From: a virus
Lineage: Duplodnaviria; Heunggongvirae; Uroviricota; Caudoviricetes
Length of the DNA: 64,000 nt
Virus record (IMG/VR): IMGVR_UViG_3300009788_000100
Direction: 5' to 3' (one strand)
The notes beneath the pieces were generated by a model. The model searched no databases. It was not told the DNA's origin and worked only from the letters and a program-made list of their open reading frames with translations. Every line of letters starts with the position of its first letter. Position 1 is the stretch's first letter. The translations under genes were made by a program, and so were the position numbers. This document shows positions 5,910 to 42,455 of this stretch, in pieces.

Positions 5910-5910
5910 A

Positions 5911-7778: not shown

Positions 7779-9424
7779 TTTATTTTCTGCTGAGCAGCTA
7801 ATTGTGCAGCAAACTCTTTAAGCTCGGTGTGTAGAGCGTTGGTCTCTTCTTCACTTTGACTAGCACCGGTTTCTCGTGCAAGTTGGTCAGCGGCAGCGCT
7901 AACCCACTCTTCAGAGCTACCGCACTCGGATATTGCCCCAAGATTAGCTATGCGGAGGATGTACTCTTCGTGTTCGTGCACATCCGTGCGGTACGGCATA
8001 AGATCAGTTTCGATCTTCTCCCAAGAATCCCCTCGGATAAGGCGCAGTGCTATAGGCATTTCCGCTAATTCTCGCAGAATTGCATCCGCCGGATAAAGCT
8101 CCGAGAGCGTATTCTTCACTAGCCTAATTAGCTGGTGTGATTGTTTGGTGAGCTCCGGAATATAAGGATCCAAGCGGCTAGTATCAGAAACACGGGTAGA
8201 GGCACCATCACTTCCCCAGGAGCTGTCGTTGTTGCAGAGGTGACTATATATCTCCTTCTGCAGCGCCATATACTCTTGGTTGCCTGATTTTAGAATACCA
8301 TGGCGTGAGACCTCTACCGCCTTGATCATCAACCCAAACAGAAGGCAAACGTGTGCCGTAATGGCTGCCGGAGAGGTACACCCGTCCATGTAGCGGCCCT
8401 CGACGTGAAGGCGATCTACTTCGCCCTCGTCGTTGAACTCAATCTGTTCGTAGTTAATAAATCCGTATTTTCGCTTGCTCTTACTCGCGTTTCCTACTTC
8501 TCTGACAACAACCGGCATTTTATAGCGGATTGCTGAGTAGGGAAGGATTGTTTTTCTGAATTTTTCCCACCGCGTAATGCTGTTTTTGTGTGCCCCGGCC
8601 GCACTAAGCCACACGAGAGCACTTTGGTAACGCCGTACAAGCTGATGAAAGTTAGCGAGAATAATCTCAGGAACAGCTCTCTCCAACTCTGTAATCGCCC
8701 CGCGAAGGTATTTAGTGCCTCTGTCTCCCTCCCCAAATTCTGGAGTTAAGTAGGAGGCTAGAATATGCACGTGAATAGAACAACGTTCATTGCTGTAGGC
8801 CCCGCGCTCCTTGCAGATGTTCAGAATTCCCCGCATCATGTCGTAGATGGGGGCGAATTGAACGCGCCGCCCTACCGTTGCTACTTCGATGCCGCCGTCC
8901 CCCAGCAGGGAACCGTCGCGACAAACCTTGTATGTTCCCGTGGCCCCGTACTGCCCAACAAATCGGGTCGGCTTCAGTTTTTTGCCGATATCATCGCGAA
9001 TCTTACGCGGATCTTTATCAATGTCGTATAACTCAGGACAGGCGGCGCACCCTCGGTCGAAGTCGCTGCACTTAGAACACGGGGATTTGAAGGCTACGCA
9101 ATACACTCCTGCGCACTTCTCTTGCTGAGCAATTTCGCAGTTACCGTTATTCCAAAGAGTACATTGCTCGAAACACGATTTGGTTTCGGGCATCGGTTTG
9201 GTCGCATCATAGGGAACTTGGCATTTACAAAGGAAGTTTTGACGGTCGCACCGCCCGTGGACTTCCGGTAAATTGAGCTCCACTTCGATACCGGCTTTCA
9301 GCAAACGCTGTAGTGTCTGCTTCCAGTAACGGACTTCTTTAGCGTCAAGTGCTGGCCGAGAGGGCTTTTCGACAAAGACCCATTCACTAGACTGGTTTTT
9401 CATATTCTCCCCGCGGTTTACCAA
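7742..9424 (-). CDS. large Cys-rich protein of the operon, possibly a divergent amidoligase-like enzyme
   Basis: 560 aa. N-terminal Cys cluster (CKCQVP...CFEQC...CEIAQQEKCAGVYC...CSKCSDFDRGCAACPE), then GDGGIEVATVG and CSIHVHI, which loosely echo amidoligase E-x-E and HVHV motifs with atypical spacing. Overlaps both neighbours. Confidence 0.4.
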   Translation of the reverse strand: MVNRGENMKNQSSEWVFVEKPSRPALDAKEVRYWKQTLQRLLKAGIEVELNLPEVHGRCDRQNFLCKCQVPYDATKPMPETKSCFEQCTLWNNGNCEIAQQEKCAGVYCVAFKSPCSKCSDFDRGCAACPELYDIDKDPRKIRDDIGKKLKPTRFVGQYGATGTYKVCRDGSLLGDGGIEVATVGRRVQFAPIYDMMRGILNICKERGAYSNERCSIHVHILASYLTPEFGEGDRGTKYLRGAITELERAVPEIILANFHQLVRRYQSALVWLSAAGAHKNSITRWEKFRKTILPYSAIRYKMPVVVREVGNASKSKRKYGFINYEQIEFNDEGEVDRLHVEGRYMDGCTSPAAITAHVCLLFGLMIKAVEVSRHGILKSGNQEYMALQKEIYSHLCNNDSSWGSDGASTRVSDTSRLDPYIPELTKQSHQLIRLVKNTLSELYPADAILRELAEMPIALRLIRGDSWEKIETDLMPYRTDVHEHEEYILRIANLGAISECGSSEEWVSAAADQLARETGASQSEEETNALHTELKEFAAQLAAQQKINWSSEHGGFLVA

Positions 9425-10515
9425 TTGTCCAAGAGACGTGGACTATACTGTTTGTTTTCTGCCATTACCGAAAAGTAACCACGAATAGACTCTTCGTGTT
9501 CGTGGAAGTACCTTAACCGGCGAAGACGTTCAATTAAATTAGGGAGCATTGCCACCGCTGCTTTTTTTGTCGGCTCTGACAACGCCCACCGAATACTACT
9601 TTTACTTGGAAGATCGTACTTTTTCTGAAATAGAGAAAACCCCGCACACTTGTTAAGTTCGCGCCAGTTAAGGCTCTCGCTTCGTGCGTCCTCGAATATC
9701 TCCCGAGATACACATAAAGCCAAACCCATAACCCCAGCAGCGTAATTTGGGTGCCGGAGATGAAAACCTCCCGGCGTTCTATATTCTACAGTACGATTAG
9801 TGATTCTAAAGTCGCCCGGCTTTCCGTACATCCCATTGCCGAGTCGGCGTAAGTTGGTATCCTCAAGAAGCATTGCTGGGATGCCTACAAAATAATCGAG
9901 CGCTGTAATAAAGCTTCTAACAAACTCTTTAGAAGCGACCGCTGCGCCTGTAGTAATTTCCCGAGGAGCTCCGATGTGAATGTGGAAACCTAAAGCATAG
10001 TTTTGCCAGCAGGAGTGCCCCTCCATGGTGACCTGGGAAGTGCCACCAAATTGATGCTCCATTAATACAGGTAGACAATGAATTAGCTTTCTTAAGTTTT
10101 CTACTACCTCTCGTTCGTGTTCTGCCGGAGAAGGTCTTAGTTCTGCTAATGGCCCGTCGCTGCCTACTAGACCTTTTGTAGGTAGCCAATAGTTGGCTGG
10201 CATAACTTGGCCTCTAGAGTCTATAAATACAAACTCTGGATCACACCCTAAAGTTACAATATCAGGGTCCGTAGGATTACCAACCACCAAGTCAAAGGTG
10301 TGCTGGCTTACCCAAGAGGCCCCTCTTTCCTTCGCTGCCTCCGCACTGTGGGCGTCGGCCACAACAACAGAGAGCTTACCCCCAGATTCAGTGCTTAGCG
10401 AAAGCTCTGCCCCGGGGTTTACTTTAAGCTTTGCTTTTTGTTTCGCCGATAGCCGGATTACACCATCTTCTCCCGCCTTCGACATTCTTGTACTTACTTG
10501 TAAGTCTAAGCGCAT
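9418..10515 (-). CDS. carboxylate-amine ligase (YbdK/GCS2-like 'amidoligase'), paralog 2
   Basis: 365 aa. LGCDPEFVFIDSRG and LGFHIHIGAPRE motifs shared with 2831..4069 and 30344..31267. Confidence 0.55.
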   Translation of the reverse strand: MRLDLQVSTRMSKAGEDGVIRLSAKQKAKLKVNPGAELSLSTESGGKLSVVVADAHSAEAAKERGASWVSQHTFDLVVGNPTDPDIVTLGCDPEFVFIDSRGQVMPANYWLPTKGLVGSDGPLAELRPSPAEHEREVVENLRKLIHCLPVLMEHQFGGTSQVTMEGHSCWQNYALGFHIHIGAPREITTGAAVASKEFVRSFITALDYFVGIPAMLLEDTNLRRLGNGMYGKPGDFRITNRTVEYRTPGGFHLRHPNYAAGVMGLALCVSREIFEDARSESLNWRELNKCAGFSLFQKKYDLPSKSSIRWALSEPTKKAAVAMLPNLIERLRRLRYFHEHEESIRGYFSVMAENKQYSPRLLDNW

Positions 10516-17068: not shown

Positions 17069-17559
17069 GTCCCTACTCCCGGTTCCGGGTTTCTTGCCGG
17101 CTTGTAGCCACGCGCACGTAGCTCCTTTATAACCTCTTCGATGACAACAGCAGGTACATCATCATCTTCGGGTATGACAAAGGAGTGCTCCCCTTTGAGA
17201 ACTATGTCGGGAGTAGCTACTTCTTTAAGGAAGGCGCGTACGAGGTCGCGCGCTGCTCTACCTATCGTTTCTTCCCGCATTTGTTCTGCTACGCGGGCCA
17301 TATCAGCCGCAGAGGGGATCTCTTCCTCTACAGACATAGGGCCTCGCCCCTTTTTAGAGACGAGGCCCTCCGGTTGCTCCTCAGCGCTGACCCTTTGGGG
17401 TCTATGAACTTTAGTCCCGTCTAGCTGTTCGATTATGCGCTCTCGTTTAAGGATATAGCCGCAAGCATCTTCAGCACAAACGGTTTCTTCAACGTCGCCG
17501 GCGTCGTCGATATCAACGCGGATCTTGATGTCTTCACTTTTACAAAATGGACACTGCAT
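16876..17559 (-). CDS. zinc-ribbon protein with highly charged C-terminal tail
   Basis: 227 aa. N-terminal MQCPFCKSEDIKIRVD...CAEDACGY zinc ribbon, K/R/E-rich tail. Start overlaps the RNAP stop region. Confidence 0.4.
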   Translation of the reverse strand: MQCPFCKSEDIKIRVDIDDAGDVEETVCAEDACGYILKRERIIEQLDGTKVHRPQRVSAEEQPEGLVSKKGRGPMSVEEEIPSAADMARVAEQMREETIGRAARDLVRAFLKEVATPDIVLKGEHSFVIPEDDDVPAVVIEEVIKELRARGYKPARNPEPGVGTWIQIKWPTQVAKKRKKRKADSTPETEELVFKKKNEGDEEIKRKARLAKNHRKKALSARSELPK

Positions 17560-20500
17560 TAGACTCTCTTCTCTTATTAAGTGCCCGGTGCCACAAATAC
17601 GAGGTCAAGTCGACCGACGCTGTGTCCAGGTGCTGCCGCAACCGGACCGGGCTCAGGTTGGAACGAGTTGCAAAGTAGAAACGTCGCTTCTTCTTCACGA
17701 TGACGTTGACGATGCTGGAGCGCCCTCGTTTCAGGTGGGAACTGTAGTGACGCTGCAGGTCATTTACCCCAACACCTTCCGCCTCTTTGCGAATGATTTC
17801 ACACAGTCGTTCTGACCCCTCTGCGGGGAAGCCCATTGCGAGAAGTTCCTTAAGATTTGCCGTGCAAATTGCTGCTTTACAGCGGTCTTCTAGAGAAACG
17901 CCCGCGTGCTTCTTGGCGAAGACGGAGTTTGCCACTTTATCCATGATAACTTCCATGGCCAAGTTTGTTTCGCGGTCGTCAAACCCAACGTTGCCCTCAA
18001 TGATTCGCATAGTGTTGTAAGCCAACGCTACGACGGTGCCGGTGCCCCGCTTGACTCCGGTGAGATTAACAACGATTTCCGCCTGCTCCTCTGCGTTGAG
18101 GGGGTTAAAGCTGCTGAGGCCGATGTCTGTTATGTTGACTGGTTTTGTGCAAGGAACTTTGGTTGCATTAGCCGCCCGTATGTAGCCAATACGGCTAGCG
18201 TCTGGAGCTAAGTACTCCTTTTGAAGGAGCTCTTTTGCTGCTTCTGTGTGGAACGACATCAAGAAGATAACATCCCCATCGAAGTCGAGGCCCTGAGAAA
18301 CCAGGCTATTGCCGCTGACCCGAATGACGAAACGACACGCGGGGTCGTCCGTTACTCGCACTCGCTGCATTCGCAGCGACTGAAACCCGAGGCAAGGGAA
18401 GCGTTCAGCGATGACAATATCGCCGGTTTTTACTGCGAGATTCTCTGCCATCTCGGCATGAATCTCAATCCAGTTCTCCGGGAGGTCGTCTTTAGCTAAG
18501 GTTGCCGTCGCTTTCGCGGAGTGGGGATAGCGCACAGCTAGGGCGTAAGTGGCGATGTCTCCTCGTTTAGTACTTAACTTCTTCGACACGTGATGGAAGT
18601 AGCGGTTAATTGTACGCAGAAGATTATCTTCCGGGGCCCCCTCGTCGACGTAACGGTGGCAGGCTACCACGATGTTGTTGAGGTAGCCTCCTGTATCGGA
18701 GAGCCCCCAAGTTCCTGTTGGGTGCTGCCAACAATCTCGCAACTCCGCACGAGGAATATACAACTTATCGATAAAGGTGTTCACTCCCCCGGGGAGAGAG
18801 GCTTCTTCTAGATTGTTTCCCTCTGAAATCAGGCGATACTCTACATCCTTGTTCTCATCGTCGGGAACGAAGACGTGATAAAGTCGAGGCAACTGCAACA
18901 TGAAGCCTTCGGGGCCGAGAGTGCTATCGACAATGGTATACCGCAATTCTGCGCGGGAGTGGAAATAACTCCCGTTTTGATATAGAGGCTTGATGCAAGA
19001 CCAATCCAAGATGGACTTTTTAAAGCTTTCGCCCTGCAGAGTACCCAGGGTATCGACTAACTCCACGACGTCATCAAACCCTTGTTGGTAGGAGAGAATC
19101 TCATCGGTGATGGGGTTATCTTTTCCGAATATGGTTGTCAAGCCCCGGATCTCGATGTGGCTGAGCTTTACCCCTGCAGTTCGACGACCGCGGTTATCGG
19201 TGGCAGTAACTTCGGCTTTGGTCCACAGCTGATTTTCAGGGTTCTTAATCAGACCCCAGAAGCCCCACCCGCAGAGAGTCCTTCCCGTAAACCAAGGGGT
19301 GCGCACCGGAGAAGTTCCGTCGGCGGCGTACCCCGAAGCTACCAGGGAGGTTTGCAGTTGTGGCAAGCTGACCTTGGCGTCATCTTCAATGACTGTTTCG
19401 CGACCATGTGTTGTCAACGTTAACAGCGCTTCTAAAACCTGCCCGAAGTTACGACGTTTTCCAACCGTTTTTGCAGAGACAATAATATCGATAGGGCGTT
19501 CTTCACCAGTACCTTCGTCTACCATGGTACCACAGTCAGCAAAAGTTACAACTCCCTTGTTGCCGTGACAGTTCGTTAGTTTGACACCTTCTTTAAAGCT
19601 ATGCTTGGTCTCAATGTAGACCCAGGTAGCGTGGCGTTCTTTGCCGTTAAAAGCAACTGTGTCTGTTTCCACGGCGGTTACAAGCGCGTGGTCGGCCCTT
19701 ACCCAGAAGCTGAGTGGCTTGCCATTAGGCTCGACAGAGAGCACGTAACCTTCCTCTATCTGATCGCCAGCTGCAACCTTAACCTCACCAAAACAAAGAA
19801 AGCGCCGGCTTTCTGCCGTCACTTTGTCCAGGTGCCTGTTATCGAGAATCAACTGGTCTTCGAAGTTAGCAGGAACATCAAGGAAGCAGGTCATCAGGTT
19901 CCAGCCCCGGCGGGCAACCCCGGTCTTTTGGGTCAACTCGGCCATGCTGCGACTTTGGATAGTCGGCGTTTCAGTTCCCTTCATCCCCAGCGTTTGGTAG
20001 AGGTTGCGCATCGGGTTGTGGTGGGACAGTCCGAAGGGGGTGAAGCGACGCAGGTCCTGCTTGAGCAGGTTGTTGTTGCACATCCCAGAATCGGAGAGAC
20101 CGATTGAGGTCCAAGGAAAATGCTTCTTGTTGAGCTCTCGCTGGTATTCTAATGCTGCTTGTGGCGGCAGCGCATCGAACTCCGGATCCAGAAAGACAAC
20201 ACGGTTGCACATCGCCCAGGTTTCCATAGGGGTTCCCGTCAGCGGCAGCTTGTTGACCAGGCCGTTGACAATATCCTGAAGGCTGCGGAAAGACATCGGC
20301 GCTTGCTTAGAGTCGAAACTCATAACCAGCCGTTCAAGTTGGGAGCGTTTTCCAACCCCGGCAAAAGCGGTCTCTATTCTGCCGGTGAGTAACCAAGCCA
20401 TAAGGTTCCAGTAGCTGTACTCTTTATCGTCGTGATTCCAAGTACCTACGGCTCTCTTTACACGTCTTCCGATGACGTAGTTTTTGTATTCATCGTCGTA

Positions 20501-20713
20501 AGGCTTCGGGAAACAGAGGCTCTGAGAAAGCTCGCCGCAGAAGAAATGGAGCCAAAGGCTATCTTCGGTCTCGCTCGTACTACAGAGCACCTGCAGAGGG
20601 TTACCCCGTCGGTACTTATTCAAGTTGCAGATGATTGCGCCGAGCTTTAAGTTAACTGCGGCCTTGAAACACTCCATGCTCTCTTCTCCTTTGGGTTCGT
20701 GGACACACACCAC
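17540..20713 (-). CDS. single-polypeptide RNA polymerase with beta-like and beta-prime-like double-psi beta-barrel motifs (YonO / crAss-gp66 / QDE-1-like)
   Basis: 1057 aa. KLTNCHGNKGVVTFAD at about aa 385 matches the RpoB GRHGNKGV lysine motif. SQGLDFDGDVIF at about aa 815 matches the RpoC NADFDGD Mg-binding motif. Both sit in one ORF, in beta-then-beta-prime order. A good SD (AAAGGAGAAG) precedes the ATG. Confidence 0.55.
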   Translation of the reverse strand: MVCVHEPKGEESMECFKAAVNLKLGAIICNLNKYRRGNPLQVLCSTSETEDSLWLHFFCGELSQSLCFPKPYDDEYKNYVIGRRVKRAVGTWNHDDKEYSYWNLMAWLLTGRIETAFAGVGKRSQLERLVMSFDSKQAPMSFRSLQDIVNGLVNKLPLTGTPMETWAMCNRVVFLDPEFDALPPQAALEYQRELNKKHFPWTSIGLSDSGMCNNNLLKQDLRRFTPFGLSHHNPMRNLYQTLGMKGTETPTIQSRSMAELTQKTGVARRGWNLMTCFLDVPANFEDQLILDNRHLDKVTAESRRFLCFGEVKVAAGDQIEEGYVLSVEPNGKPLSFWVRADHALVTAVETDTVAFNGKERHATWVYIETKHSFKEGVKLTNCHGNKGVVTFADCGTMVDEGTGEERPIDIIVSAKTVGKRRNFGQVLEALLTLTTHGRETVIEDDAKVSLPQLQTSLVASGYAADGTSPVRTPWFTGRTLCGWGFWGLIKNPENQLWTKAEVTATDNRGRRTAGVKLSHIEIRGLTTIFGKDNPITDEILSYQQGFDDVVELVDTLGTLQGESFKKSILDWSCIKPLYQNGSYFHSRAELRYTIVDSTLGPEGFMLQLPRLYHVFVPDDENKDVEYRLISEGNNLEEASLPGGVNTFIDKLYIPRAELRDCWQHPTGTWGLSDTGGYLNNIVVACHRYVDEGAPEDNLLRTINRYFHHVSKKLSTKRGDIATYALAVRYPHSAKATATLAKDDLPENWIEIHAEMAENLAVKTGDIVIAERFPCLGFQSLRMQRVRVTDDPACRFVIRVSGNSLVSQGLDFDGDVIFLMSFHTEAAKELLQKEYLAPDASRIGYIRAANATKVPCTKPVNITDIGLSSFNPLNAEEQAEIVVNLTGVKRGTGTVVALAYNTMRIIEGNVGFDDRETNLAMEVIMDKVANSVFAKKHAGVSLEDRCKAAICTANLKELLAMGFPAEGSERLCEIIRKEAEGVGVNDLQRHYSSHLKRGRSSIVNVIVKKKRRFYFATRSNLSPVRLRQHLDTASVDLTSYLWHRALNKRRESNAVSIL

Positions 20714-22770: not shown

Positions 22771-23268
22771 TTATAGTAACAGGGTATCAAGCTCATTCCA
22801 GAAGCTGGGAAGTCTTCCCGTCTTAAGAAACCAGCGAATGAAAGGGTATTCTTTCTTGTACATTTCGAACTGAGGGGAGCCGTTGGCTTTCGAGAACCTT
22901 GAGTTGGCAATACGATCTGCCAGCTTGACAGCCAATGCCAGGGTGCCTCCCTCCCGAACCTTCAACATTGTCTTAACCGTTTTTTCCTTCCGATTCCTAC
23001 CGTTTTCATTGGTAACAGCGAATACTAACTCGCCGGTGTCATCCCCGAAAAGGTCGTAGACGTGGCGCAGCTTAGCAGAGGTGTCTTCGACTACGTCGTG
23101 CAGCCAGCCGGCAGCAAACACTCTGTCTGGAAAGTAGAAATCCCCGCTGTGCTGTTGTAACACCTGAACTACGTCTGTTAGGTGTTTCTCATAGGGATGC
23201 TCCCCGTATAACTGTCCGCCGTGGCTCTCGATGGCGAACTGTCGGGCGTTGTTAATGAGAACCTTCAT
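22771..23268 (-). CDS. HD-domain phosphohydrolase
   Basis: 165 aa. H..H...GWLHDVVEDT HD motif plus downstream D. Confidence 0.65.
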   Translation of the reverse strand: MKVLINNARQFAIESHGGQLYGEHPYEKHLTDVVQVLQQHSGDFYFPDRVFAAGWLHDVVEDTSAKLRHVYDLFGDDTGELVFAVTNENGRNRKEKTVKTMLKVREGGTLALAVKLADRIANSRFSKANGSPQFEMYKKEYPFIRWFLKTGRLPSFWNELDTLLL

Positions 23269-23820
23269 TTAATTATTTCCCCGTCCCGGGTGACCCTTTT
23301 TATCTTTATCATTTTTTTTCCGAGGAGGCATAGTTTTTAGGGGAGGACACCTATTTAACTATCTCCCAGCCCCAGGTGATCATGATTAACATTTCCTGGT
23401 GCATTTGCTCTTCTAGCTCTGCTTCCCCATCAAAATATTCATCGTCTACTTCGATTACTCTTTCAACGAGGGATTTAACCTTGCTTGTTCTAGCCCATAC
23501 TTTAACCTTCATTCGCCTGTACCTCGGCTTTAGGGAAGGAGTTCTCCATCAACAGCCTGCAAACACTGTACTCCCAGCAATCGGGCCAAACTTCTCCGCG
23601 CATCCCGGAAAGAATTTGCTGGGGTAAACTTCCACTTATAAAGGTCTTCTTTTTACCCTTCCAGGACAGACGAATACCGGTGCCAGCACCGTCTACTCGT
23701 GTTATGGTGAAGTAGTCGCGCTTTTTGGCTGGAATGTGGGTGTGCTTACCCTTCCAAGGGAAGTAATTAAACTGACAAATACCACACCATTTTGCTCCGT
23801 ACATATTCTTATCTTTCTCA

Positions 23821-24215
23821 GTGGACCTGCTCGGAATCGAACCGAGGTCCGAACTACTTCAGTGTTGGGTGCTTTACTACGGCTATCTGTACCCAGCTTT
23901 GTGGACTTCATACCCTGTCCACGGTTTTTCTCCTATCTGGGAACCGACTTGAGGGTCTAATGGTTTAACGTCTTCTAGTAGGACGTACAGCGGTCCTGCT
24001 TGGGTAATAAGGTGAGGAGAGCCTACCCCACGCCGACTCTAGGCCGCGGCGAGCGCACGGGGCGCCGCCGTCCGATTGGTGTTAGCCACCATCGAAGCGA
24101 ACTTAACAAACGAGTTGCCAGTTATTGATCGGATAACCAAAGTTAAGGCATTTAGGTTCCAGTATGCCAGCCGAACTTGCCACCGAAAATAGCCCGTCGA
24201 AGCCAGTTCAGGCCC
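23821..24215 (-). ncRNA. ssrA: tmRNA (ssrA-like transfer-messenger RNA)
   Basis: Minus-strand RNA begins GGGCCUGAACUGGCUUCGACGGG (E. coli tmRNA: GGGGCUGAUUCUGGAUUCGACGGG). It ends with T-arm CUCGG-UUCGAUU-CCGAG and CAGGUCC-A, which pairs with the 5' GGGCCUG (one G-U). About 395 nt in a 400-nt ORF-free gap. No canonical ...ALAA tag frame identified by eye. Confidence 0.6.
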
Positions 24216-24223
24216 GTTAGGGA

Positions 24224-24991
24224 CTAGTAGTGTTTTTTCTTTTTTTTCTTCGAGGAAAACTTTCCTGTAGAAGAAGCCCCTCCCTTCTCTTCAGCCGCTT
24301 CTAGTAGCTTTTTAAGATCGCCGCCAATTTTAGCTCCTGTTGCCTTTGGTCGCCGGAACTTTTTACGCAGTAGTTTAGGTGCACTGATGAGCGGCGACGT
24401 TAAGTCCCTGAAGCCGATAATTTTTGTAAAGTAGGAGGTTCTTGAAGGGTTGGAGTTAAAGCCGGAATTACTGTTGCGTAGCTGAGCTCTGTTTTGTAGG
24501 TGCTTTATTGCTTTTTTACTCAGTGCCCTTGGGTTGGGTGGCCGGCGCTTTGCTGCCCACTTCGACCGAGTTCGCATGATGTCCTGGAAAACAGGATCGT
24601 TAAGGAACTGAGTTGAGGTCGCGCCCTTGAGGTAGTTATTCAGGTCAGTGTTGTCTGCTTGGAATTGTGGCATCAACTCCATCCAGCTACAGCTTTGTTG
24701 GTACAGCTCGCTTGAATTAACGCTCAAGGAGAGGTATTCGTGCCAAATAAAAGCCCTCCTGATCTCAGCTTCCCACTTAGTCATATCGTAGGGGAGCACG
24801 CTAAACTCCTCCTTTACTTCAACCCGTGCTGCCGACACCGACAAGTGAAAACCGTAATCATTTCTTTTTGATGTGTTGCCCCACACTAGAAGCAGATAAC
24901 GTTTTGCCTGCTCATCGGCCTTTAGTACCATAAATTTTCCGGTACCGTAACCTTCGATAGTTAACCGAGCCGATAGGTGTTTTCGAAGCAT
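24224..24991 (-). CDS. hypothetical protein with poly-Lys C-terminus
   Basis: 255-aa ORF ending ...SSKKKKKKHY. Confidence 0.35.
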   Translation of the reverse strand: MLRKHLSARLTIEGYGTGKFMVLKADEQAKRYLLLVWGNTSKRNDYGFHLSVSAARVEVKEEFSVLPYDMTKWEAEIRRAFIWHEYLSLSVNSSELYQQSCSWMELMPQFQADNTDLNNYLKGATSTQFLNDPVFQDIMRTRSKWAAKRRPPNPRALSKKAIKHLQNRAQLRNSNSGFNSNPSRTSYFTKIIGFRDLTSPLISAPKLLRKKFRRPKATGAKIGGDLKKLLEAAEEKGGASSTGKFSSKKKKKKHY

Positions 24992-25288: not shown

Positions 25289-25936
25289 CTAGAGCTCATG
25301 CCCACAAACCCCATTAAGAAAATTCCAAATAATTGAGGTACCTGCTTGGCTGGAAGCATCTTTACCTAGATGTTCCGGGTGGAACTGTACTGCGTACAAA
25401 CCACGCTCTTCATCTTCCATAGCAGCGGCCTCTGTAGCTTCAGTAGTACCCGTAACGGAAAACCCCTCAGGAACAGTGGTTACTTTACAGACATGCGCCA
25501 TCCACACAGGAGCTCCCGCATCGGTAAAGTCTCGGAATAGTTCCGAGGGCTCCTCCGTGAAGTCCAGGTGGATTAGTTCTTTCTCCCGTTCGTGCATCCG
25601 TTTGACCTCGCCGCCAAAGTCCTTCGCCATTCGTTGCATGCCGTAGCAAATGCCAAGGACGGGGACACCAAGGGTGTAGATAGTTGTGTCCACCGTGGGC
25701 GCTTTGGGAGAATTGACGTATTCAGGAGAGCCGGAGATGAAAAGTGCCAGAGGGTTTAGTGCCGTTAGAACTTCGGCTGGCGTGTCGCTGGGCAGCAAAA
25801 TGGGGCGCAGCTTGAAGTTAATTAAAGTATCGTATAAGCTCTTGGTAAAAGAGGAACCACAGTAAAGAATAGGAACATTACGCATTGAATTTACTTTCCT
25901 CGCTGCCGTATCCGTGCAAGCTGCCGTGGCTTTCAA
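25289..25936 (-). CDS. class-I glutamine amidotransferase (triad GATase1)
   Basis: 215 aa. VPVLGICYGMQRMA (G-x-C-x-G nucleophile elbow) and VQFHPEHL (His-Glu of the triad). Confidence 0.65.
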   Translation of the reverse strand: MKATAACTDTAARKVNSMRNVPILYCGSSFTKSLYDTLINFKLRPILLPSDTPAEVLTALNPLALFISGSPEYVNSPKAPTVDTTIYTLGVPVLGICYGMQRMAKDFGGEVKRMHEREKELIHLDFTEEPSELFRDFTDAGAPVWMAHVCKVTTVPEGFSVTGTTEATEAAAMEDEERGLYAVQFHPEHLGKDASSQAGTSIIWNFLNGVCGHEL

Positions 25937-26438
25937 GTAATTGCTTTGCTAAGGGCGCATCGTAAATCTTTGCTAGCTGGTCGTGCGCGTATAGGTCCGC
26001 GTATAACTCTAACTCTGCGTGGCTCCAGAAGGGCGACAACTCTTCCTTACGGCAGTCCCAGTCAACGTGACCAACTTCATGGAGAAGAATAAACTCAGTC
26101 TCCATAGTAGTTAAGCCATCGACGACTTCGTTGAGCCAAATACCGCAGGACTTAGTATGCTTCTCCCACTCTTTCGCTTTCGCCGCCTTCATTAGGTAAC
26201 CCCAGTTGAGTCGGTAGGCCTTCGGAATAGCCACCAGCAGTTGCTCCACGGAGTAGTACTTAATCATTCTCTCTAGGAAGTCATCTTGAGTTTGAATAGA
26301 GATGTTGGTAACCATCGGAGGCACATTAGAGTCGGTAACTTTTTTGCCCAGCAAGTTTAGGGGCCAGTAAGTATGCGGCACAACGCGCTCTACCATCGCG
26401 TCGAGAACACTTTGAGTGAGTTTGGTGGAAGTTGTCAC
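25878..26438 (-). CDS. HEVGH zinc-metallopeptidase-like protein, paralog B
   Basis: 186 aa with FILLHEVGHVDWD. Sits between GATase1 and Cys-rich ORFs. Confidence 0.45.
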   Translation of the reverse strand: MTTSTKLTQSVLDAMVERVVPHTYWPLNLLGKKVTDSNVPPMVTNISIQTQDDFLERMIKYYSVEQLLVAIPKAYRLNWGYLMKAAKAKEWEKHTKSCGIWLNEVVDGLTTMETEFILLHEVGHVDWDCRKEELSPFWSHAELELYADLYAHDQLAKIYDAPLAKQLLESHGSLHGYGSEESKFNA

Positions 26439-26851
26439 TGGTTCCTCTCTTTTGGTAGATTTCCGCTGGAGATGAGGTCAAAAATTTCAGCTGCGTCAAC
26501 GTCTAAATTGTACTCTAGTTCCTTGTCGCCCAGCAAGTATTCTCCTAAGTCATAAAAGCCGGAGCAACTTAGTAATGGAATTCCGATCATTTGGCAAGCT
26601 TTATCGTAAGCTGCGGCCGACATCGCGGTCGTTTCGTGGCAACCGCAGTCGTTGACACAGGTTAACTGGAAGCCCCGCTTCTCATCATCGTCCCCATCCT
26701 TAGCAATGAAGGACACAGAGAAAACGCAATCCCAGGGTTCTCCCTGCCAGGCCTCGGCGTTGGGTAAGGAAGACCAAAGAGAACGTAGATTCTTATTCCA
26801 ACGGACAAGGTCACCAATGTTTAGGCAGTCAAAACTATCTATTGCCGACAT
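26435..26851 (-). CDS. hypothetical Cys-containing protein
   Basis: 138-aa ORF. Start overlaps the upstream stop. Confidence 0.3.
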   Translation of the reverse strand: MSAIDSFDCLNIGDLVRWNKNLRSLWSSLPNAEAWQGEPWDCVFSVSFIAKDGDDDEKRGFQLTCVNDCGCHETTAMSAAAYDKACQMIGIPLLSCSGFYDLGEYLLGDKELEYNLDVDAAEIFDLISSGNLPKERNQ

Positions 26852-27399
26852 GCCCGGTACCTTGTTTGAATTTCTACGGCTTGGTTGTAGATCTTCTCAA
26901 CTCCCGCGCCGCCAATTTTATTTGCGTTGGCGCCGCACTTGTAATTATCACAACAATTAAAGGTGCCCGTCCCATAAGCAAACGGTGGATAGATTTTTCC
27001 CGAAGTGCGGCAAGCTACACACAGATAGTGCCCCGCCCAGTCGCGCCAACAGGTATCATTATAGTGGCCGCATCCGTGGCAGTACTCGCTGTAGAGCTTA
27101 ACGATGAGGCTGCCCCTGGCGTCTACTCCCTCGGGAGATAAATCAATTCGGTACAGCTTCAAGTCCCCATGTTTTTTGTGTAAACTCCGATTAGTTGCGT
27201 TGGTGCAGGTTAACGTAAAGTAGTCTTTAGAGGGCATGCCACTTAAGACGTTTCTTTCGGTTACCTCTAAAATACAGTTGGCGCGCTGGATAAACTCCTG
27301 TCGCCTAGGACCCGAATACCTGGGTAAAAACTGCGGGTTCATCTGGTACGTTGCCCGCGGTACCAAAGTCGAGCAGTGCACGGGGTTGAGTATGATCAT
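26839..27399 (-). CDS. hypothetical Cys-rich protein
   Basis: 186 aa with YCHGCGHYNDTCWRDWAGHYLCVACRTSGK and NCCDNYKCGANANK clusters. Confidence 0.3.
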   Translation of the reverse strand: MIILNPVHCSTLVPRATYQMNPQFLPRYSGPRRQEFIQRANCILEVTERNVLSGMPSKDYFTLTCTNATNRSLHKKHGDLKLYRIDLSPEGVDARGSLIVKLYSEYCHGCGHYNDTCWRDWAGHYLCVACRTSGKIYPPFAYGTGTFNCCDNYKCGANANKIGGAGVEKIYNQAVEIQTRYRACRQ

Positions 27400-27684
27400 T
27401 TCAATTTTTCCAGTCCGCTCGCCAACGACTTTCGGTGTTTTTTAGTTTTCGTCTCTACTATTTTAACCTCGTCCACAGCAAGATCAGTCACTTGCATTAC
27501 GAAATGACTATCGTCCGCAATTTCAACTACGGGAGATAAATCCGCTCGGGAGAGCCCGGTTGTTTGGCTGCGGTTCCAGCGGAGGTACTCTTCCCAGGGA
27601 TCCCAGTTACAATGACTGCTTGCCTTTTTTTTTCGCTTGCTCGTTTTCACAGCGGCTTCGACCCTGTCCCGGCGCCGCTGCTTC

Positions 27685-28128
27685 TTACTCTGGCTTACTA
27701 CGCCGTACACCGGGTTTTCTCGACTGTCGCTTTTTGCTTTTGGGTTTCTGACGGCTCTTTTTTTCTTCGACAACTTTCTCTAGCGGTTCTTCTTGCCGTC
27801 CCGAAATCTCTTTTCCCTCGCCATTTTTATTTTCCCTCGTTGCCTTTAACCTCTCTAGGCGACCACGCGTGAAAGCAGCGTTGAAGTAACGCTGGAAAGC
27901 AACGGGGTACTCCTTGCGTCGGCGCTCAATTTTAGCTTCAATGCCCTCTGTTCTTTTAACAACCATCATGTCCCCTACAAAGATGGCCGTGTCTCTTAAA
28001 TCTTTAATAAAAGCGTAGGCTTCTGCCTGCTGCCGAAGTAGCTTTTTCTCACGCTCTGTTAGCTTCATCGGCATCTCGTTCCGTGTAAGGTATGATATAG
28101 TGTTCCACGAGTTGCTGCACATAGTCAA
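27685..28128 (-). CDS. hypothetical basic protein
   Basis: 147-aa ORF, K/R/E-rich tail. Overlaps the 27396..27773 ORF, so one boundary is wrong. Confidence 0.25.
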   Translation of the reverse strand: MTMCSNSWNTISYLTRNEMPMKLTEREKKLLRQQAEAYAFIKDLRDTAIFVGDMMVVKRTEGIEAKIERRRKEYPVAFQRYFNAAFTRGRLERLKATRENKNGEGKEISGRQEEPLEKVVEEKKSRQKPKSKKRQSRKPGVRRSKPE

Positions 28129-28783
28129 CTGCGGGTGCGCTTTCCGGCATCCACTCCGGGTGAAACTGCATACCCAGAGCTTTAATTTTCGGGTACCACA
28201 CTACGTCCGGTTCCGTCTTCAACTGCGCGGAAGCTGCGTCGATATCAATAACAGATTCCGCATCAAACGCGTAGTGCATTGAATAAGGCTTCGGACTCCA
28301 CGCCAGTACCTCAAAGTCACCGGTTGGTAGATCCCAAGGATATTGCATTTGGTGGTGATCCCCCTTCACCATTAATTCCTGAATGTAGCCCTCAGGGAAG
28401 CGTGCTGTTACTGGGTGGGTGCACATCCCATGATTGGTGACATCTTGAAGTAGCTTTCCCCCCGCCATCACACAGAGGAGCTGTGCTCCTCGGCAAATAC
28501 CTACCATCGGTACTCCGTGCGCTTGGGCGGTGTCAAAGACATTCATTTCCTCTACATCACGCGCAAAGTTAGAGAAAGTTGCGGGGTGCTTAGCCCGGTC
28601 ATAAATTTCCGGGGATACGTCGGCTCCCCCGGTAAAAACAACCATCGCGACTTGTTCTGGGGTTCGCTGAAGAATCTCCGGATCATCGGTATACTCGAAC
28701 CCGAAGGTGTGGAAGGGCCGAGAATGATTTCGAGGGGAGTCGTTAACTACTAATAGTTTTTTCAAAAGTGACATTACGGCCAT
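28049..28783 (-). CDS. class-I glutamine amidotransferase-like protein
   Basis: 244 aa. HGVPMVGICRGAQLLCVMAGG (G-x-C-x-G) and LGMQFHPEWM (H-P-E). Confidence 0.6.
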   Translation of the reverse strand: MAVMSLLKKLLVVNDSPRNHSRPFHTFGFEYTDDPEILQRTPEQVAMVVFTGGADVSPEIYDRAKHPATFSNFARDVEEMNVFDTAQAHGVPMVGICRGAQLLCVMAGGKLLQDVTNHGMCTHPVTARFPEGYIQELMVKGDHHQMQYPWDLPTGDFEVLAWSPKPYSMHYAFDAESVIDIDAASAQLKTEPDVVWYPKIKALGMQFHPEWMPESAPAVDYVQQLVEHYIIPYTERDADEANRA

Positions 28784-29657
28784 TTCTTTTTAGCTGTTCG
28801 ACAAGCTCCGCTGCACGTTTAAAGCTCCCGGAGGCAATAACCGGGTAGACCTCGCTCGAGAGCATCATTTCGGGGTTGGAAACGATAAAGCGTCGCGGGG
28901 GGACTGTTGTACCTGTCTGCCAACCCCACATGAGTGATCTTTCGTTGATGCACGCCGTTTTGAGGTGGCGGTCATCGATTTCTTCAGGACAGTGGGTTAA
29001 GCGATGCATTTGCAGCACTATCCCTAGGTCGCAACCAGCATTAGCTGGGTGGGAACCAAGCCCTGGAATGCTAGTGGAGAAAGGATAGAGCGACTGGTCA
29101 AGGTAACCAACGTGGTCTCGGTGACAATAGGCGATTGCCGCCCAGGGGTCGCAACCCGCTTCGTCGATTAGTTGGGTGCCGTGAAGAACAATACCAATCC
29201 CTTCTCTAATCCAACGTAACCAGCACAACTGCATATAAATACGAGGGATAATCGCCTCGGCGGCATCTAGGTCAATGCGAATTCCCTCTCCGGTTACCAA
29301 GCTTTTGGCAGTTTGCTTTAGGGGAAGTAGGCCGATAGCTTGCCCTATTTCCGCCCAGCGAATACAATGGGCGAGCGGGACCGGTACGCTGCCATCCTCT
29401 TCCACCGCCTGGTGCGGGCAGTATGTTAAGTATCTTGTGGCAGGGCGGTTTTTAAGGTAGTTACCTAGGTCTCCAAAGCAAGCACGGTTTTGAGTCTCCA
29501 GCAATACTTTATCATCCGCATCGCGAAGGTAGTACTTCACGGCATACTTAGGAGTTTTGTAGCGTTTTGACTGTACCGCAGCGAGAAGCCGACGTATTGT
29601 TCTATCCGGAAATAAACGCCGCATCAATTCCGCATTTAGAAGCGCACTTGTAACCAC
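28743..29657 (-). CDS. hypothetical protein (candidate Cys/His enzyme)
   Basis: 304-aa ORF with AGCDPWAAIAYCHRDHVGY. No family assigned. Confidence 0.35.
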   Translation of the reverse strand: MVTSALLNAELMRRLFPDRTIRRLLAAVQSKRYKTPKYAVKYYLRDADDKVLLETQNRACFGDLGNYLKNRPATRYLTYCPHQAVEEDGSVPVPLAHCIRWAEIGQAIGLLPLKQTAKSLVTGEGIRIDLDAAEAIIPRIYMQLCWLRWIREGIGIVLHGTQLIDEAGCDPWAAIAYCHRDHVGYLDQSLYPFSTSIPGLGSHPANAGCDLGIVLQMHRLTHCPEEIDDRHLKTACINERSLMWGWQTGTTVPPRRFIVSNPEMMLSSEVYPVIASGSFKRAAELVEQLKRNGRNVTFEKTISS

Positions 29658-30148
29658 AACTTCCTCTTACATTTCTTAAAGCCGTTGTTAATGAAACACT
29701 GAACTTTTTTATCGTAGTTATTCTTTAGGACACGAAAGCCCCAGTTATAGTGCCCCCACCAGGGGTGTGGTCGGTGGCAGTTTTTAATCCCCCTCCACTT
29801 GCCGTACTTTTTGTAACCACATTTTCCTGTACTACTATACAGTTTAACGCAGAACTTAGTATGTTGTTTCTCCCAGTAGAGCAATTCTCTCGCGGCTTCC
29901 CTTACAGAGGCCTTATCGCTGGGCATTTTGGGGCGGGTATCTGAAGTCGTGGTGCGGTGGTTTTGACAAAAACCAATGTCCCAACTTTTGTTCTTATTGC
30001 GGTGCCACTTTTTACTGCCGTTGCCGCTTTCGTAGCGGCAAATACCCTCTAGCACAGCAGCATCGACCCCGTACTTCTTTGCGGTCGCCTGGAAGTAAGT
30101 ACCGCTAAGTGCGGCTAGTGCTATAATGGCGCTAAAAAGGTATGGCAA
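29636..30148 (-). CDS. secreted lytic transglycosylase (SLT/lysozyme-like) domain protein
   Basis: 170 aa. N-terminal signal peptide (MPYLFSAIIALAALSG), GVDAAVLEGICRYESGN with catalytic-type E-S, then IGFCQ (compare GLMQ). Confidence 0.5.
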   Translation of the reverse strand: MPYLFSAIIALAALSGTYFQATAKKYGVDAAVLEGICRYESGNGSKKWHRNKNKSWDIGFCQNHRTTTSDTRPKMPSDKASVREAARELLYWEKQHTKFCVKLYSSTGKCGYKKYGKWRGIKNCHRPHPWWGHYNWGFRVLKNNYDKKVQCFINNGFKKCKRKLWLQVRF

Positions 30149-30343
30149 ATCTACTCCTTGCTTAGGTTGTCACTGCCCAGCTCCGCCAGTTCTCCAATTG
30201 CTTTTACGGAGAGCCAAAAAGGAGGTAAATCCGACCCGGGCTCGTGGACACGATAAAAGCGACCATATTCGTTATATAAGCCGCTGTATTCGACAGTGGT
30301 GTTGTTGTCCCGTAAAATCTGAACCGCATCGCCAAAGAGCACC

Positions 30344-31267
30344 TTAAAATTCCCAAGCTTGAGAAAGCTCGGCGGCAGGCATCGTATCCACTTGCTCTAT
30401 TCTATTGTGAAGCTCTTCATCCAACAACGGGTGGAGGTGTTCTTCGTAGAGTTTTCGAGCCGTCGCGATGTCAGACTCGTTGATGACCCGCTGCAGCTCT
30501 TCCGCGCCACCGAGATCCTCGATGAGCTCGACGAAAAGCTCTTCGTCAAGAGCAACTGCAAGCGCTTTGGCACTCAAGTCATAGATGAGGTGGGTGTGTT
30601 CTGGCGTAGCCAGCCACCACGAGCTGCAGGCCCGGTATTCAACCCCGTATGTTTTGGGGCGGTGCGCGCCCGCCTTTCCATAGAGGCCGCGCCGCGCCGC
30701 CGCCGTCACATCCTTGTCTAAGAAGACACTCATAAGACCAACAAAGATATCAAGAGCCTTAACGACCCTCACTTTGCCCAAACCACTTTCGTCAAGCAAC
30801 AGCTCCGCTAACTCTTTGTCTTCTTTGTGCGCGCCGATATGAAGGTGCCCGCCGGCGGACCGGAAGGGCTTGTGCGCCGCGTCAGCGGGAACGTGGTTGA
30901 TCGCTAGTGCGTAAGCATCGAAGTCGGGGTCACAGCCGAAGGCGCTCGCTTCGTAACCTTGGAGCTGGCTGTTCGGAAAGTTAGCCGAAGCTTGTAACAG
31001 CAGTTCGGTGTTCTTTGCTGCCGCTAAAGAAGAAATTTCCTTTAGCGCTGTTCCTATAATAGCGGTAAACTTTTCAGGAGTATCCGCCGGAATGGTGTTA
31101 AACTCGATGAGTACGTTGTCATGCAAAACAGCACCACCAGTGGCCAACGGCCGGGGCGCCATCTTACCTTCCGCAATCACGGGGATTGCGGAGCGTAACT
31201 CCTTAGTCTCAGGGTCCCTTAAGAAAAGTTCGGGGTCTGAGCCTAACAAAAAGCGAACCGTCTCCAT
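30344..31267 (-). CDS. carboxylate-amine ligase (YbdK/GCS2-like 'amidoligase'), paralog 3
   Basis: 307 aa. LLGSDPELFLRDPE at the N-terminus and SAGGHLHIGAHKED. Same motif pair as 2831 and 9418. Confidence 0.55.
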   Translation of the reverse strand: METVRFLLGSDPELFLRDPETKELRSAIPVIAEGKMAPRPLATGGAVLHDNVLIEFNTIPADTPEKFTAIIGTALKEISSLAAAKNTELLLQASANFPNSQLQGYEASAFGCDPDFDAYALAINHVPADAAHKPFRSAGGHLHIGAHKEDKELAELLLDESGLGKVRVVKALDIFVGLMSVFLDKDVTAAARRGLYGKAGAHRPKTYGVEYRACSSWWLATPEHTHLIYDLSAKALAVALDEELFVELIEDLGGAEELQRVINESDIATARKLYEEHLHPLLDEELHNRIEQVDTMPAAELSQAWEF

Positions 31268-37907: not shown

Positions 37908-38759
37908 TTAATTACTGATTAGAATCCCCGGCGATGTGCCCCCGGTGATGATAACTTTATCACCTGGCGCAACTTTGCTGTAAAGCAACGCGGCGGCCTC
38001 GATGCGCCGCACTGAGAGGTAGGCTGGCGTCAGAGATTTGGCGAGGATGACGTTGTAGGCAGCCTCAGCTTGAGCTTCTGCAGCTCGCACGATCCTCATC
38101 TTCTCGGCGATCTTCATGCGGTTGTCGGCGCGCAAAACCTCCATCTGTTGTTTCGCGACCTCTTCTTGTAGCTCAATCTCCCGCTTCCGCTTCTTCTCCA
38201 TCGCATTGGTAATGACTTCGGGATAGTCGAGGTTGGAGGTAACAACCATCGTAATCTCGACCGGGGTACCCTTAAGGGCAGCTCGCAAGTCCTTGGCGAT
38301 TACTTCCTGAATTTCTGCTCGCCGCTCGCGAATATCTGTCGTCGAGTACTGCGAAACGTAAAAGCGAGTGATGGAGCGAGCCTGGGGACGAACGTAATTG
38401 TTGTAGAGGACGTCGAAATCTAACACCCCCTTCTTCATTTTCGAACCCTGGTTGTTGAGTACGGCGCGCATCCCCTCCCCATCAGTGACGGCCAAACGAG
38501 CACGGACTTTGAGGTCGAACTTCATGTTGAGCTCGTCCTTGCAGAGCACGCTCATCTTCTCTTTGTAGGTCGTTTCTGAGGTCTCGATGAGCAGCATCTC
38601 GCAGCGACCGTAGCAAGTGTGACGACCGGGCTGCAGGGCTTCAGCTTGGATGCCGCTGGGTTCCTGCCGCACGCCGATGAATCCGGGTGGGACAACTTCG
38701 TTACACCCAAGGGTGTAAAGACTGCAGAAAGCAATAAGGGCGATGATGAGTTTGTTCAC
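37908..38759 (-). CDS. SPFH/band-7 (prohibitin/HflC-like) domain lipoprotein
   Basis: 283 aa. MNKLIIALIAFCSLYTLGC lipoprotein signal, band-7 core, and C-terminal coiled-coil (REIELQEEVAKQQMEVLRADNRMKIAEKMRIVRAAEAQAEAAYN) typical of the SPFH family. Confidence 0.6.
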   Translation of the reverse strand: MNKLIIALIAFCSLYTLGCNEVVPPGFIGVRQEPSGIQAEALQPGRHTCYGRCEMLLIETSETTYKEKMSVLCKDELNMKFDLKVRARLAVTDGEGMRAVLNNQGSKMKKGVLDFDVLYNNYVRPQARSITRFYVSQYSTTDIRERRAEIQEVIAKDLRAALKGTPVEITMVVTSNLDYPEVITNAMEKKRKREIELQEEVAKQQMEVLRADNRMKIAEKMRIVRAAEAQAEAAYNVILAKSLTPAYLSVRRIEAAALLYSKVAPGDKVIITGGTSPGILISN

Positions 38760-41827: not shown

Positions 41828-42385
41828 GCTTGGCTCGGTATTGCCATTACTAAAGGGTTCACCGAGTTTGACATCTTCTACTCCCGGGGTTTCCCCCGGG
41901 GCACTCAAATTTTACTTAAGTCCGTCGTGGCTACCATTACACCACCGCTGCATAGTCCCAGTCAATTGACTCTGCCAATTGGTCTACCGGGGGTTTATTT
42001 ATCTTTTTGTGCACGCAGCCAAAGCACTTGGTGTTTAGGTTGACCTACACCTACACATTTTACTTTAGTGGAAGCTATATGAGGTTCAAGAGCATTCCCC
42101 TTCGAGAATCCAACTTTTCGTCCACACCAAGGACACTTTATCTTCTTTTTATTCGCGGGCACAAGTTACTATAAAGAATAGGGATTGCATGCTTTGCAAG
42201 GGCAATAGAGATGAAGAAACTTGGGCCAGTCTTTACGAGGAATGCCTTCTTCCTTCAACCTTTGGTAGTAAGCTTGGATAGCGCAGTTCTTTTTAGGGTT
42301 TTCGTCTGCCCAGTGTTCCTTTTTATGTACCCACTGCTTTACTTTATTCTTTTCATCCTTTGGCATGTTTTTCTCTCTTGTTGGA

Positions 42386-42455
42386 TCGGGTGCAGGGAAT
42401 CGAACCCCAGTCCTCAGGACCAAAACCTGATGTCTTACCTCTAGACGACACCCGA
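42386..42455 (-). tRNA. tRNA-Gln (anticodon UUG)
   Basis: Minus strand. Acceptor UCGGGUG/CACCCGA, D-arm GUCU-AGAGGUA-AGAC, anticodon arm UCAGG-UUUUGGU-CCUGA (U33, anticodon UUG, G37), T-arm UGGGG-UUCGAUU-CCCUG. CCA not encoded. Confidence 0.8.

Follow-up and report, generated by a model that had tools for sequence, protein, structure and literature searches.

A tmRNA, probably functional and phage-borne, with a conserved tag reading frame

A complete tmRNA gene

The stretch of DNA analyzed here (64,000 nucleotides; referred to below as the window) encodes a bona fide tmRNA on its minus strand. Apart from a full assignment of pseudoknots PK2-PK4, every determinant of a working tmRNA that can be read from sequence is present and conserved, and we consider it very probable that the gene is a functional, phage-borne copy of the standard one-piece tmRNA (ssrA). 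Two independent detectors, ARAGORN and the Rfam model RF00023, agree on the identity of the RNA. ARAGORN calls a one-piece (i.e., standard-form) gene from 24215 to 23821 on the minus strand, and RF00023 matches 24215 to 23819 over model positions 1-374 of 374, with a score of 65.3 bits (E 3.4e-23) against a gathering score of 47 bits; the score is modest because the central region of the RNA is divergent. A first-pass annotation, made from the letters alone, had placed a phage-encoded ssrA-like RNA at 23821-24215 and had named a covariance-model or ARAGORN search as the way to check it; the significant match over that interval bears out the presence of a tmRNA. The features of the gene are as follows, with nucleotide (nt) numbers counted from G1 of the RNA.

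23821..24215, minus strand: one-piece tmRNA gene, with G1 at 24215 and the discriminator A394 at 23822 (ARAGORN, RF00023, and the sequence)
24209..24215, minus strand: 5' strand of the acceptor stem, GGGCCUG (nt 1-7), including G3 of G3.U70; 7 of 7 pairs formed in 7 of 7 clade members
24186..24196, minus strand: 5' strand of helix P2a (nt 20-30), whose partner is nt 356-366 (23850-23860)
24131..24168, minus strand: pseudoknot 1 (nt 48-85), backed by covariation and highly conserved in the clade
24123, minus strand: A at -4 to the resume codon (nt 93), the equivalent of E. coli A86; invariant in 7 of 7 members
24039..24119, minus strand: tag frame (ARAGORN; Rfam register; length of 26 codons and stop position shared by 7 of 7 clade members)
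24052..24066, minus strand: hairpin within the tag frame, in its 3' part (nt 150-155 with 159-164), backed by covariation in the 4-5 closest members
24031..24051, minus strand: predicted hairpin CGCCG/CGGCG (nt 165-169 with 181-185) whose loop contains the stop UAG, read from the window sequence
23892..23946, minus strand: 3' pseudoknot, with stem 270-274/290-294, loop 275-281 paired to 318-324, and an inserted hairpin 295-299/310-314
23830..23846, minus strand: T-arm (nt 370-386), a 5-bp stem CUCGG/CCGAG with the 7-nt loop UUCGAUU
23822..23829, minus strand: 3' strand of the acceptor stem, CAGGUCC (nt 387-393), and the discriminator A (nt 394)

The gene fills a 419-nt gap bounded by the open reading frames (ORFs) at 24224-24991 and 23502-23804, in keeping with the ORF-free gap of the first-pass annotation, and the elements quoted there (the 5' end GGGCCUGAACUGGCUUCGACGGG, the T-arm CUCGG-UUCGAUU-CCGAG, and the acceptor strand CAGGUCC followed by A) can all be read in the sequence. 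The bases after the discriminator A are C-U-G, such that CCA is not encoded in the window copy and must be added after transcription; three of the relatives described below do encode CCA. Copies of the tmRNA that are 100% identical occur on two contigs, L007 and L008, from two other metagenome samples, and the window tmRNA is therefore no assembly artifact.

Structure and covariation

The fold of the RNA was examined in an alignment of seven sequences, the window copy and six relatives, with a covariation test that took in P1, P2a, P2b, P2d, the stems of pseudoknot 1, and the T-arm (43 pairs, 295 cells). Standard pairs occupy 93.6% of the 295 cells, versus 35-44% after a shift of the 3' partners by 1-3 columns; 18 of the 43 pairs have changed on both sides, and the observed covariation score was reached by none of 500 shuffles. 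In the acceptor stem, three pairs (positions 4-6) carry compensatory changes, and G3.U70, the alanine identity pair, is invariant in all seven members. The T-arm stem has changes on both sides at four of its five pairs, with 100% of cells paired. Helix P2a, which connects the tRNA-like domain with the remaining RNA, comprises eleven pairs, five of them changed on both sides and 88% paired. Pseudoknot 1 is built from stem P3, GGCAU/AUGCC (48-52 with 65-69), and stem P4, GGAACC/GGUU-AU-CC (56-61 with 78-85), the latter with a 2-nt bulge; both are fully (100%) paired wherever a member has letters at these positions, with one both-sides change in each. In total, P2a, P2b, P2d, P3, and P4 are backed by covariation, and P2d is, like P3 and P4, 100% paired.

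Downstream of pseudoknot 1 the picture is more uneven. Within the PK2-PK4 region, one 3' pseudoknot is seen with covariation: its inserted hairpin has both-sides changes at all five pairs, stem 277-281/318-322 covaries, and stem 270-274/290-294 is conserved without variation. In the Rfam alignment, nt 186-269, to which no helices could be assigned, have low posterior probability. The hairpin that holds the stop codon in its loop may be comparable, by analogy, to helix 5 of bacterial tmRNAs; its pairing is poorly kept in register in the relatives. Thermodynamic folding alone lends no support to the structure (MFE z-score of -0.30). The first-pass annotation had looked to secondary structure for the pseudoknots and the resume codon, and this has succeeded in part, in that pseudoknot 1, one 3' pseudoknot, and the resume codon GGC are now located and the central region (23871-24030) is only partly resolved into helices.

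The tag reading frame

The tag encoded by the window copy is GNSFVKFASMVANTNRTAAPRALAAA, 26 codons that run from GGC (tmRNA nt 97-99, 24119-24117) to UAG (24041-24039) and end in ...R-A-L-A-A-A-UAG. The RF00023 alignment sets this GGC, with high posterior probability, against the resume codon of the consensus. The adenosine that is invariant at -4, in a single-stranded stretch, corresponds to E. coli A86, which has been defined experimentally as the main determinant of the reading frame (PMC2481249). The first-pass annotation had reported no in-frame tag of the A-L-A-A-stop type, and that reading was wrong; one of the short frames that it offered in its place, ending in ...QLVC*, results from reading this tag stretch in the +2 frame.

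The tags of the six relatives, by the contig that carries each, are as follows.

L016: GNSFAKVAAAVANANRAPVSMARVAA, stop UAG
L013: GNSFVNFAAEVAEANRSAVPMARAAA, stop UAG
L018: GNSFVNFAAAVADANRSAVPMARAAA, stop UAA
L012: DNSFVKFAAAAAKANCSAAPLARAAA, stop UAA
L015: ANSLVQLADAALRSCVSAGASARAAA, stop UGA
L019: ANSFAQIADAAFRSCFSAPASAVAAA, stop UGA

All seven tags of the clade are thus 26 codons long, in a common register and with a common stop position, at which any of UAG, UAA, and UGA is used. Pairwise differences among the seven members number 165, 152, and 258 at codon positions 1, 2, and 3, respectively, i.e., there is an excess at the third position, and the synonymous share of codon differences is 0.37 in the tag frame versus 0.13 and 0.07 in the remaining two; no such codon-position periodicity is seen in a control stretch of 60 nt upstream of the tag. 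Residues N2, S3, A8, A22, A25, and A26 are invariant in the seven members. The resume codon itself varies in the clade among GGC, GAC, and GCC (Gly, Asp, or Ala). The C terminus is ...LAAA in the window copy and ...RAAA or ...RVAA in the relatives, compared with ...LAA in E. coli, and the last five residues across the clade follow the pattern A-[LRV]-[AV]-A-A. An Ala-rich, hydrophobic end of this kind is of the same type as the ends of bacterial tags. Taken together, the frame, its length, the stop position, the invariant A at -4, and the pattern of substitution indicate that the tag frame is real and translated. The suggestion of a non-canonical or absent degradation tag is contradicted by the ...ALAAA end and by the conservation of frame, length, and stop in seven members.

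Relatives and synteny

The six further distinct tmRNAs of the clade came from sequence flanking RNAP homologues of progressively lower identity and from a metagenome scan with the pattern of pseudoknot 1; L018 and L019 were found by the scan and not via RNAP homologues. Four of the further tmRNAs score 53-75 bits over the full-length RF00023 model, a fifth is that of a second contig of the L016 phage, and the L012 tmRNA was called only after splicing in silico (see below). In every clade member in which the RNAP homologue was looked up (57-66% identity), the tmRNA occupies the same syntenic place, a few kilobases upstream of the RNAP gene and immediately behind an ORF of low conservation. At the level of sequence, this comparison shows a tmRNA gene that a sub-clade of uncultured large phages has retained in a single syntenic place, with constraint on its structure as well as on its coding frame. 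In three more-distant relatives (RNAP identity of 39-46%), no tmRNA was found within 10 kb of the RNAP gene; the syntenic tmRNA may be limited to one sub-clade, or it may be located elsewhere in the distant genomes.

Searches of larger collections returned no further members. Scans of IMG/VR with the exact 5' end, two flanking proteins, and the pseudoknot 1 pattern found nothing; the clade is absent from the IMG/VR collection scanned. The pseudoknot 1 pattern had 0 matches in 185,579 genomes of bacterial representative species, and a pattern combining the resume region with 26 codons had 6 matches in the same set, none of them a tmRNA and their number about that expected by chance (an estimate). 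By blastn, the tmRNA has no DNA similarity to GenBank phages (50,697 records).

Two smaller observations can be added here. ARAGORN gave a wrong tag for L015 and missed L018. In L013, the last base of the stop codon of the upstream ORF is also G1 of the tmRNA.

The window as part of a phage genome

All substantial ORFs of the window are on the minus strand and tightly packed, and some of their products fall into PHROG and Pfam families characteristic of phages. These include a helicase, two SSBs, a 1,057-aa multisubunit-RNAP-like protein, three phiEco32-type COOH-NH2 ligases, and several glutamine amidotransferases. The translation genes of the window are those for peptide deformylase, IF-1, a Thg1-like tRNA-His guanylyltransferase, and tRNA-Gln. 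The Thg1-like protein is 51% identical to those of large Bacillus myoviruses, and for both it and the COOH-NH2 ligase genes the nearest sequenced relatives are phage. Metagenomes contain over 150 homologues of the RNAP-like protein, some of which lie on contigs of 250-330 kb, and one relative contig carries an endolysin-type amidase. No capsid, portal, or terminase was recognized within the 64 kb. A 20-kb stretch of the window had no megablast match among GenBank phages (50,697 records), nor did the RNAP-like protein have a tblastn match to GenBank phages. From gene content and relatives, and not from structural hallmark genes, we conclude that the window is most probably part of an uncultured large phage.

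What of a partner protein? No PF01668 (SmpB) match was found among the 110 ORFs of the window in a Pfam scan, and a phmmer search there with E. coli SmpB as the query reached an E of 0.93 at best; this search covered 64 kb of a probably much larger genome. Phages normally use the SmpB of the host, and its absence from the window does not argue against tmRNA identity. A CCA-adding enzyme was likewise not found in the 64 kb. The ORF that always abuts the 5' end of the tmRNA was considered as a candidate SmpB-like partner; it is only a fast-evolving positional orthologue (15-24% identity), has no Pfam match and no profile match to PDB sequences, and its single-sequence AlphaFold model (pLDDT of 39.4) is unusable. 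Around the tmRNA there are no sigma-70-like promoters and no minus-strand terminators, a null result that is uninformative because the phage has RNAP-like genes of its own.

Proposed mechanism and its alternatives

In total, the observations outlined above are in keeping with a model in which the tmRNA would be cotranscribed with its minus-strand neighbors, as suggested by the stop codon of the upstream ORF 8 nt before G1 and by the lack of a sigma-70-like promoter nearby. RNase P would then cut the 5' end, the 3' end would be trimmed, and the host CCA-adding enzyme would add CCA. We predict that host AlaRS would charge the RNA with alanine through G3.U70, and that SmpB and EF-Tu would bring it to ribosomes stalled on broken or nonstop mRNAs; we assume that SmpB is supplied by the host or by a phage copy outside the window. 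Translation would resume at GGC, such that the charged Ala and the 26 encoded residues would form a 27-residue tag, with release at UAG, and the Ala-rich, hydrophobic end (...ALAAA) would make the product a target of ClpXP-type host proteases. In this model, the phage would gain by keeping ribosomes free and by recycling amino acids during the mRNA degradation that accompanies infection. A rationale of ribosome availability is consistent with the peptide deformylase, IF-1, Thg1-like, and tRNA-Gln genes of the window, and the same rationale has already been proposed for other phage tmRNAs (PMC7162821, PMC9004378), whose suggested role is to rescue ribosomes or to maintain hijacked translation (PMC4131195, PMC7162821, PMC9004378).

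Several other readings have to be weighed against this model. Could the RNA rescue ribosomes without marking their products for proteolysis, its tag being non-canonical or absent, as the first-pass annotation had ventured? The tag is 26 codons long, versus a modal length of 10 (PMC11915505), and it begins with Gly and not Ala and ends in LAAA and not LAA. Set against these features is an in-register open frame that ends in Ala-Ala-stop and is under coding-type selection in seven of seven members, and a conserved frame of this kind leaves the idea of rescue without tagging unsupported. The last five residues, moreover, are of the Ala-rich, hydrophobic type that is generally known from bacterial tags. 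The idea has no basis in the sequence, and we hold it to be highly improbable. Might the RNA instead inhibit host trans-translation as a decoy that titrates out the SmpB of the host, a role that has been proposed for the TLD-only RNA of mycobacteriophage DS6A (PMC4131195, PMC11915505)? Besides this precedent, the lack of a phage SmpB in the window would fit such a role. However, the DS6A RNA consists of the tRNA-like domain only, whereas here conservation extends to pseudoknot 1, to the A at -4, and to the resume codon and the whole tag frame, and the tag changes with a synonymous bias; a pure decoy needs none of these conserved mRNA-like parts, and we give this reading very little credence. 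It is scarcely more than conceivable, too, that the gene is a bacterial chromosomal ssrA, or a fragment of one at the integration site of a prophage or island. It is true that ssrA is often an integration site, with partial copies in prophages (PMC9004378, PMC11915505), and that neither capsid nor terminase was recognized in the window. Yet the gene is full length and no 3' fragment, the 64 kb around it consist of genes on the same strand, with matches to phage families and none of bacterial housekeeping type, no integrase is among the listed Pfam families of the window, the gene is syntenic in seven related elements beside a phage-type RNAP gene, and the pseudoknot 1 sequence is absent from all bacterial representative genomes searched.

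The remaining alternative accepts a translated tag and concerns its reader. Does the tag serve simply as a degron for host ClpXP, or is it a clade-specific signal that is read by a phage factor (i.e., an adaptor, a protease, or the neighboring peptide ligases)? In favor of the latter, the N-terminal x-N-S-F and A8 are as conserved as the C terminus, the length of 26 residues is fixed in the clade, the two clade-specific patterns are without counterpart in the 185,579 bacterial species genomes, and many COOH-NH2 ligases and amidotransferases surround the tmRNA. However, nothing connects these ligases and amidotransferases with the tag, and the hairpin inside the tag frame also constrains the sequence. 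The N-terminal portion of the E. coli tag is also a binding site for SspB, a host adaptor, and by this parallel N-terminal conservation would be expected for an ordinary degron as well. We therefore regard a phage-read signal as unlikely, and the same doubt attaches to its fuller form, in which a long-standing, vertically inherited lineage of phage tmRNAs would carry an N-S-F motif read by a phage-specific factor, with stalled products redirected. If this were the case, the phage would impose a fate of its own on stalled products, be it selective destruction or modification by the neighboring peptide-ligase and amidotransferase enzymes; alternatively, the system might counter ribosome-stalling defense toxins, beyond topping up host trans-translation. 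We continue to favor a functional tmRNA whose tag would act as a host-type degron.

Comparison with known tmRNAs

Compared with bacterial one-piece tmRNAs (RF00023), the window RNA shares the tRNA-Ala-like domain with G3.U70, P2, pseudoknot 1, the A at -4, the resume codon with a short frame to Ala-Ala-stop, and at least one 3' pseudoknot. It differs from them in having a tag of 26 codons where the modal number is 10 (PMC11915505). It differs as well in being phage-borne, in the lack of an encoded CCA, in the LAAA C terminus, and in a resume codon that is Gly (GGC) here and GGC, GAC, or GCC in the clade. A long tag, a Gly resume codon, an ...LAAA end, and the lack of an encoded CCA all fall within the variation that bacterial tmRNAs show in nature.

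That phages can carry tmRNAs is well established, and the window copy is in all probability an ordinary case of this kind from another uncultured large-phage clade. They have been described from the Bxz1 group of mycobacteriophages and from Bacillus phage G (PMC4131195); huge metagenomic phages carry tmRNA, some of them with SmpB also (PMC7162821); and one survey found tmRNA in 402 of 18,146 phage genomes (PMC9004378). Like these, the window holds a complete ssrA in what is most probably a large phage genome, with other translation genes. Unlike the two-piece tmRNA of Melnitz and the pelagimyophages, it is in one piece; unlike the huge phages with SmpB, no SmpB is seen in the window; and unlike known phage tmRNAs in general, it is without DNA similarity to GenBank phages and belongs to an uncultured clade. 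With the DS6A RNA it has in common that it is phage-borne and has a tRNA-like domain, but DS6A is without an mRNA-like domain, whereas the window RNA keeps a coding-constrained tag frame. One more clade of uncultured large phages probably has a ribosome-rescue RNA of its own, with a tag that is unusually long and a resume codon that is variable, and the seven homologues suggest that a phage tmRNA gene can persist under structural and coding selection.

An intron-bearing relative

In L012, the tmRNA gene is interrupted by a 238-nt group I intron (L012 6018-6255) placed after UUCGAU, i.e., at T-loop position 7, which is the main known intron site in bacterial tmRNA genes (PMC11915505). The intron matches RF00028 over the full model with 36.4 bits (E 2.5e-7), below the gathering score of 50; its boundaries are a U at -1 and a terminal G. 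Splicing in silico restores a canonical T-loop, and ARAGORN then calls a tmRNA with the expected tag. In its site and boundary rules, L012 resembles the intron-form tmRNA genes already described; unlike them, it lies in a phage contig, and its LAGLIDADG ORF follows directly after the 14-nt 3' exon, outside the intron and on the other strand, whereas in the 23 described cases that ORF is inside the intron (PMC11915505). L012 suggests that intron-form tmRNA genes circulate in phages, too.

Organization of the tmRNA locus

The tmRNA gene is closely bounded at its 5' end: in all clade members (the window and its six tmRNA-bearing relatives), an upstream ORF ends 0 to 8 nt from the first tmRNA nucleotide. 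Representative junctions are as follows, the last two on related metagenome contigs.

24216-24226, window: upstream ORF end/tmRNA start
L013:7357-7359: upstream ORF end/tmRNA start
L016:6788-6791: upstream ORF end/tmRNA start

In L013, the G of the ORF's UAG stop codon is itself tmRNA nucleotide 1, and the last base of the stop codon would therefore be lost on RNase P processing. The ORF product is a positional orthologue that is evolving fast, with 15-24% identity; it had no match in Pfam or by PDB-profile search, and its AlphaFold single-sequence model (pLDDT 39) was unusable.

One relative, contig L012 (SRR10807626), carries its tmRNA gene in interrupted form, and the stretch L012:5640-6692 holds both this gene and a neighboring LAGLIDADG ORF.

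L012:6018-6255: group I intron, 238 nt, splitting the tmRNA T-loop after UUCGAU, at position 7
L012:6270-6692, opposite strand to the tmRNA: weak-LAGLIDADG ORF, beyond the intron and immediately past the 14-nt 3' exon

The intron scores 36.4 bits (E 2.5e-7) against the Rfam group I intron model RF00028, under the gathering score of 50, and after in silico splicing ARAGORN calls the tmRNA, with tag DNSFVKFAAAAAKANCSAAPLARAAA. The layout, with the LAGLIDADG ORF outside the intron, resembles that of a free-standing homing endonuclease beside an intron.

ARAGORN and Rfam differ on two further relatives.

L015:8172-8634: tmRNA, Rfam 70.6 bits
L018:4368-4774 (-): tmRNA, Rfam 56.4 bits

For L015, the ARAGORN tag (ETVVNVRSRGGR, then two stops) is a mis-call, the in-register frame being ANSLVQLADAALRSCVSAGASARAAA followed by one stop; the L018 tmRNA drew no ARAGORN call, though Rfam detects it.

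RNA polymerase-like protein and distant relatives

17540-20713 (-), window: RNAP-like protein, 1,057 aa, matching RNA polymerase Rpb2 domain 6

Relatives also match Rpb1 domain 2. A tblastn search of 50,697 GenBank phage records gave no match for the window protein, and metagenomes supply over 150 homologues, on contigs reaching 330 kb; the protein is a marker of a large uncultured clade. In three more distant relatives (L027, L028 and L029; RNAP identity, 39-46%), no tmRNA lies closer than 10 kb to the RNAP gene, and the corresponding interval holds one, no and seven tRNA genes, respectively. L028 also encodes a T4-type RNA ligase and L029 an endolysin-type amidase.

Gene content of the window

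Peptide-ligase and amidotransferase genes are unusually concentrated at 1351-10515 and 25289-31267 (-), and the synteny of the ligase, GATase and GNAT set is kept in relatives.

1351-1854 (-): GNAT acetyltransferase
2831-4069, 9418-10515, 30344-31267 (-): three phiEco32-type COOH-NH2 ligases
4077-5909, 6828-7778 (-): two class-II GATases
25289-25936, 28049-28783 (-): two class-I GATase/Peptidase_C26 proteins

Translation-related genes are also present, all four on the same strand as the tmRNA.

42382-42455 (-): tRNA-Gln(UUG)
43902-44186 (-): IF-1 homologue
45515-46090 (-): peptide deformylase
59320-60084 (-): Thg1-like tRNA-His guanylyltransferase, with large Bacillus myovirus counterparts (51% identity)

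Other genes include the following.

22771-23268 (-): HD_4 (RelA/SpoT-type HD hydrolase) protein, 165 aa, encoded some 550 nt downstream from the tmRNA gene
37908-38759 (-): Band_7/SPFH protein
43060-43683 (-): Peptidase_M50 (site-2 protease family) protein
57449-58405 (-): radical SAM protein
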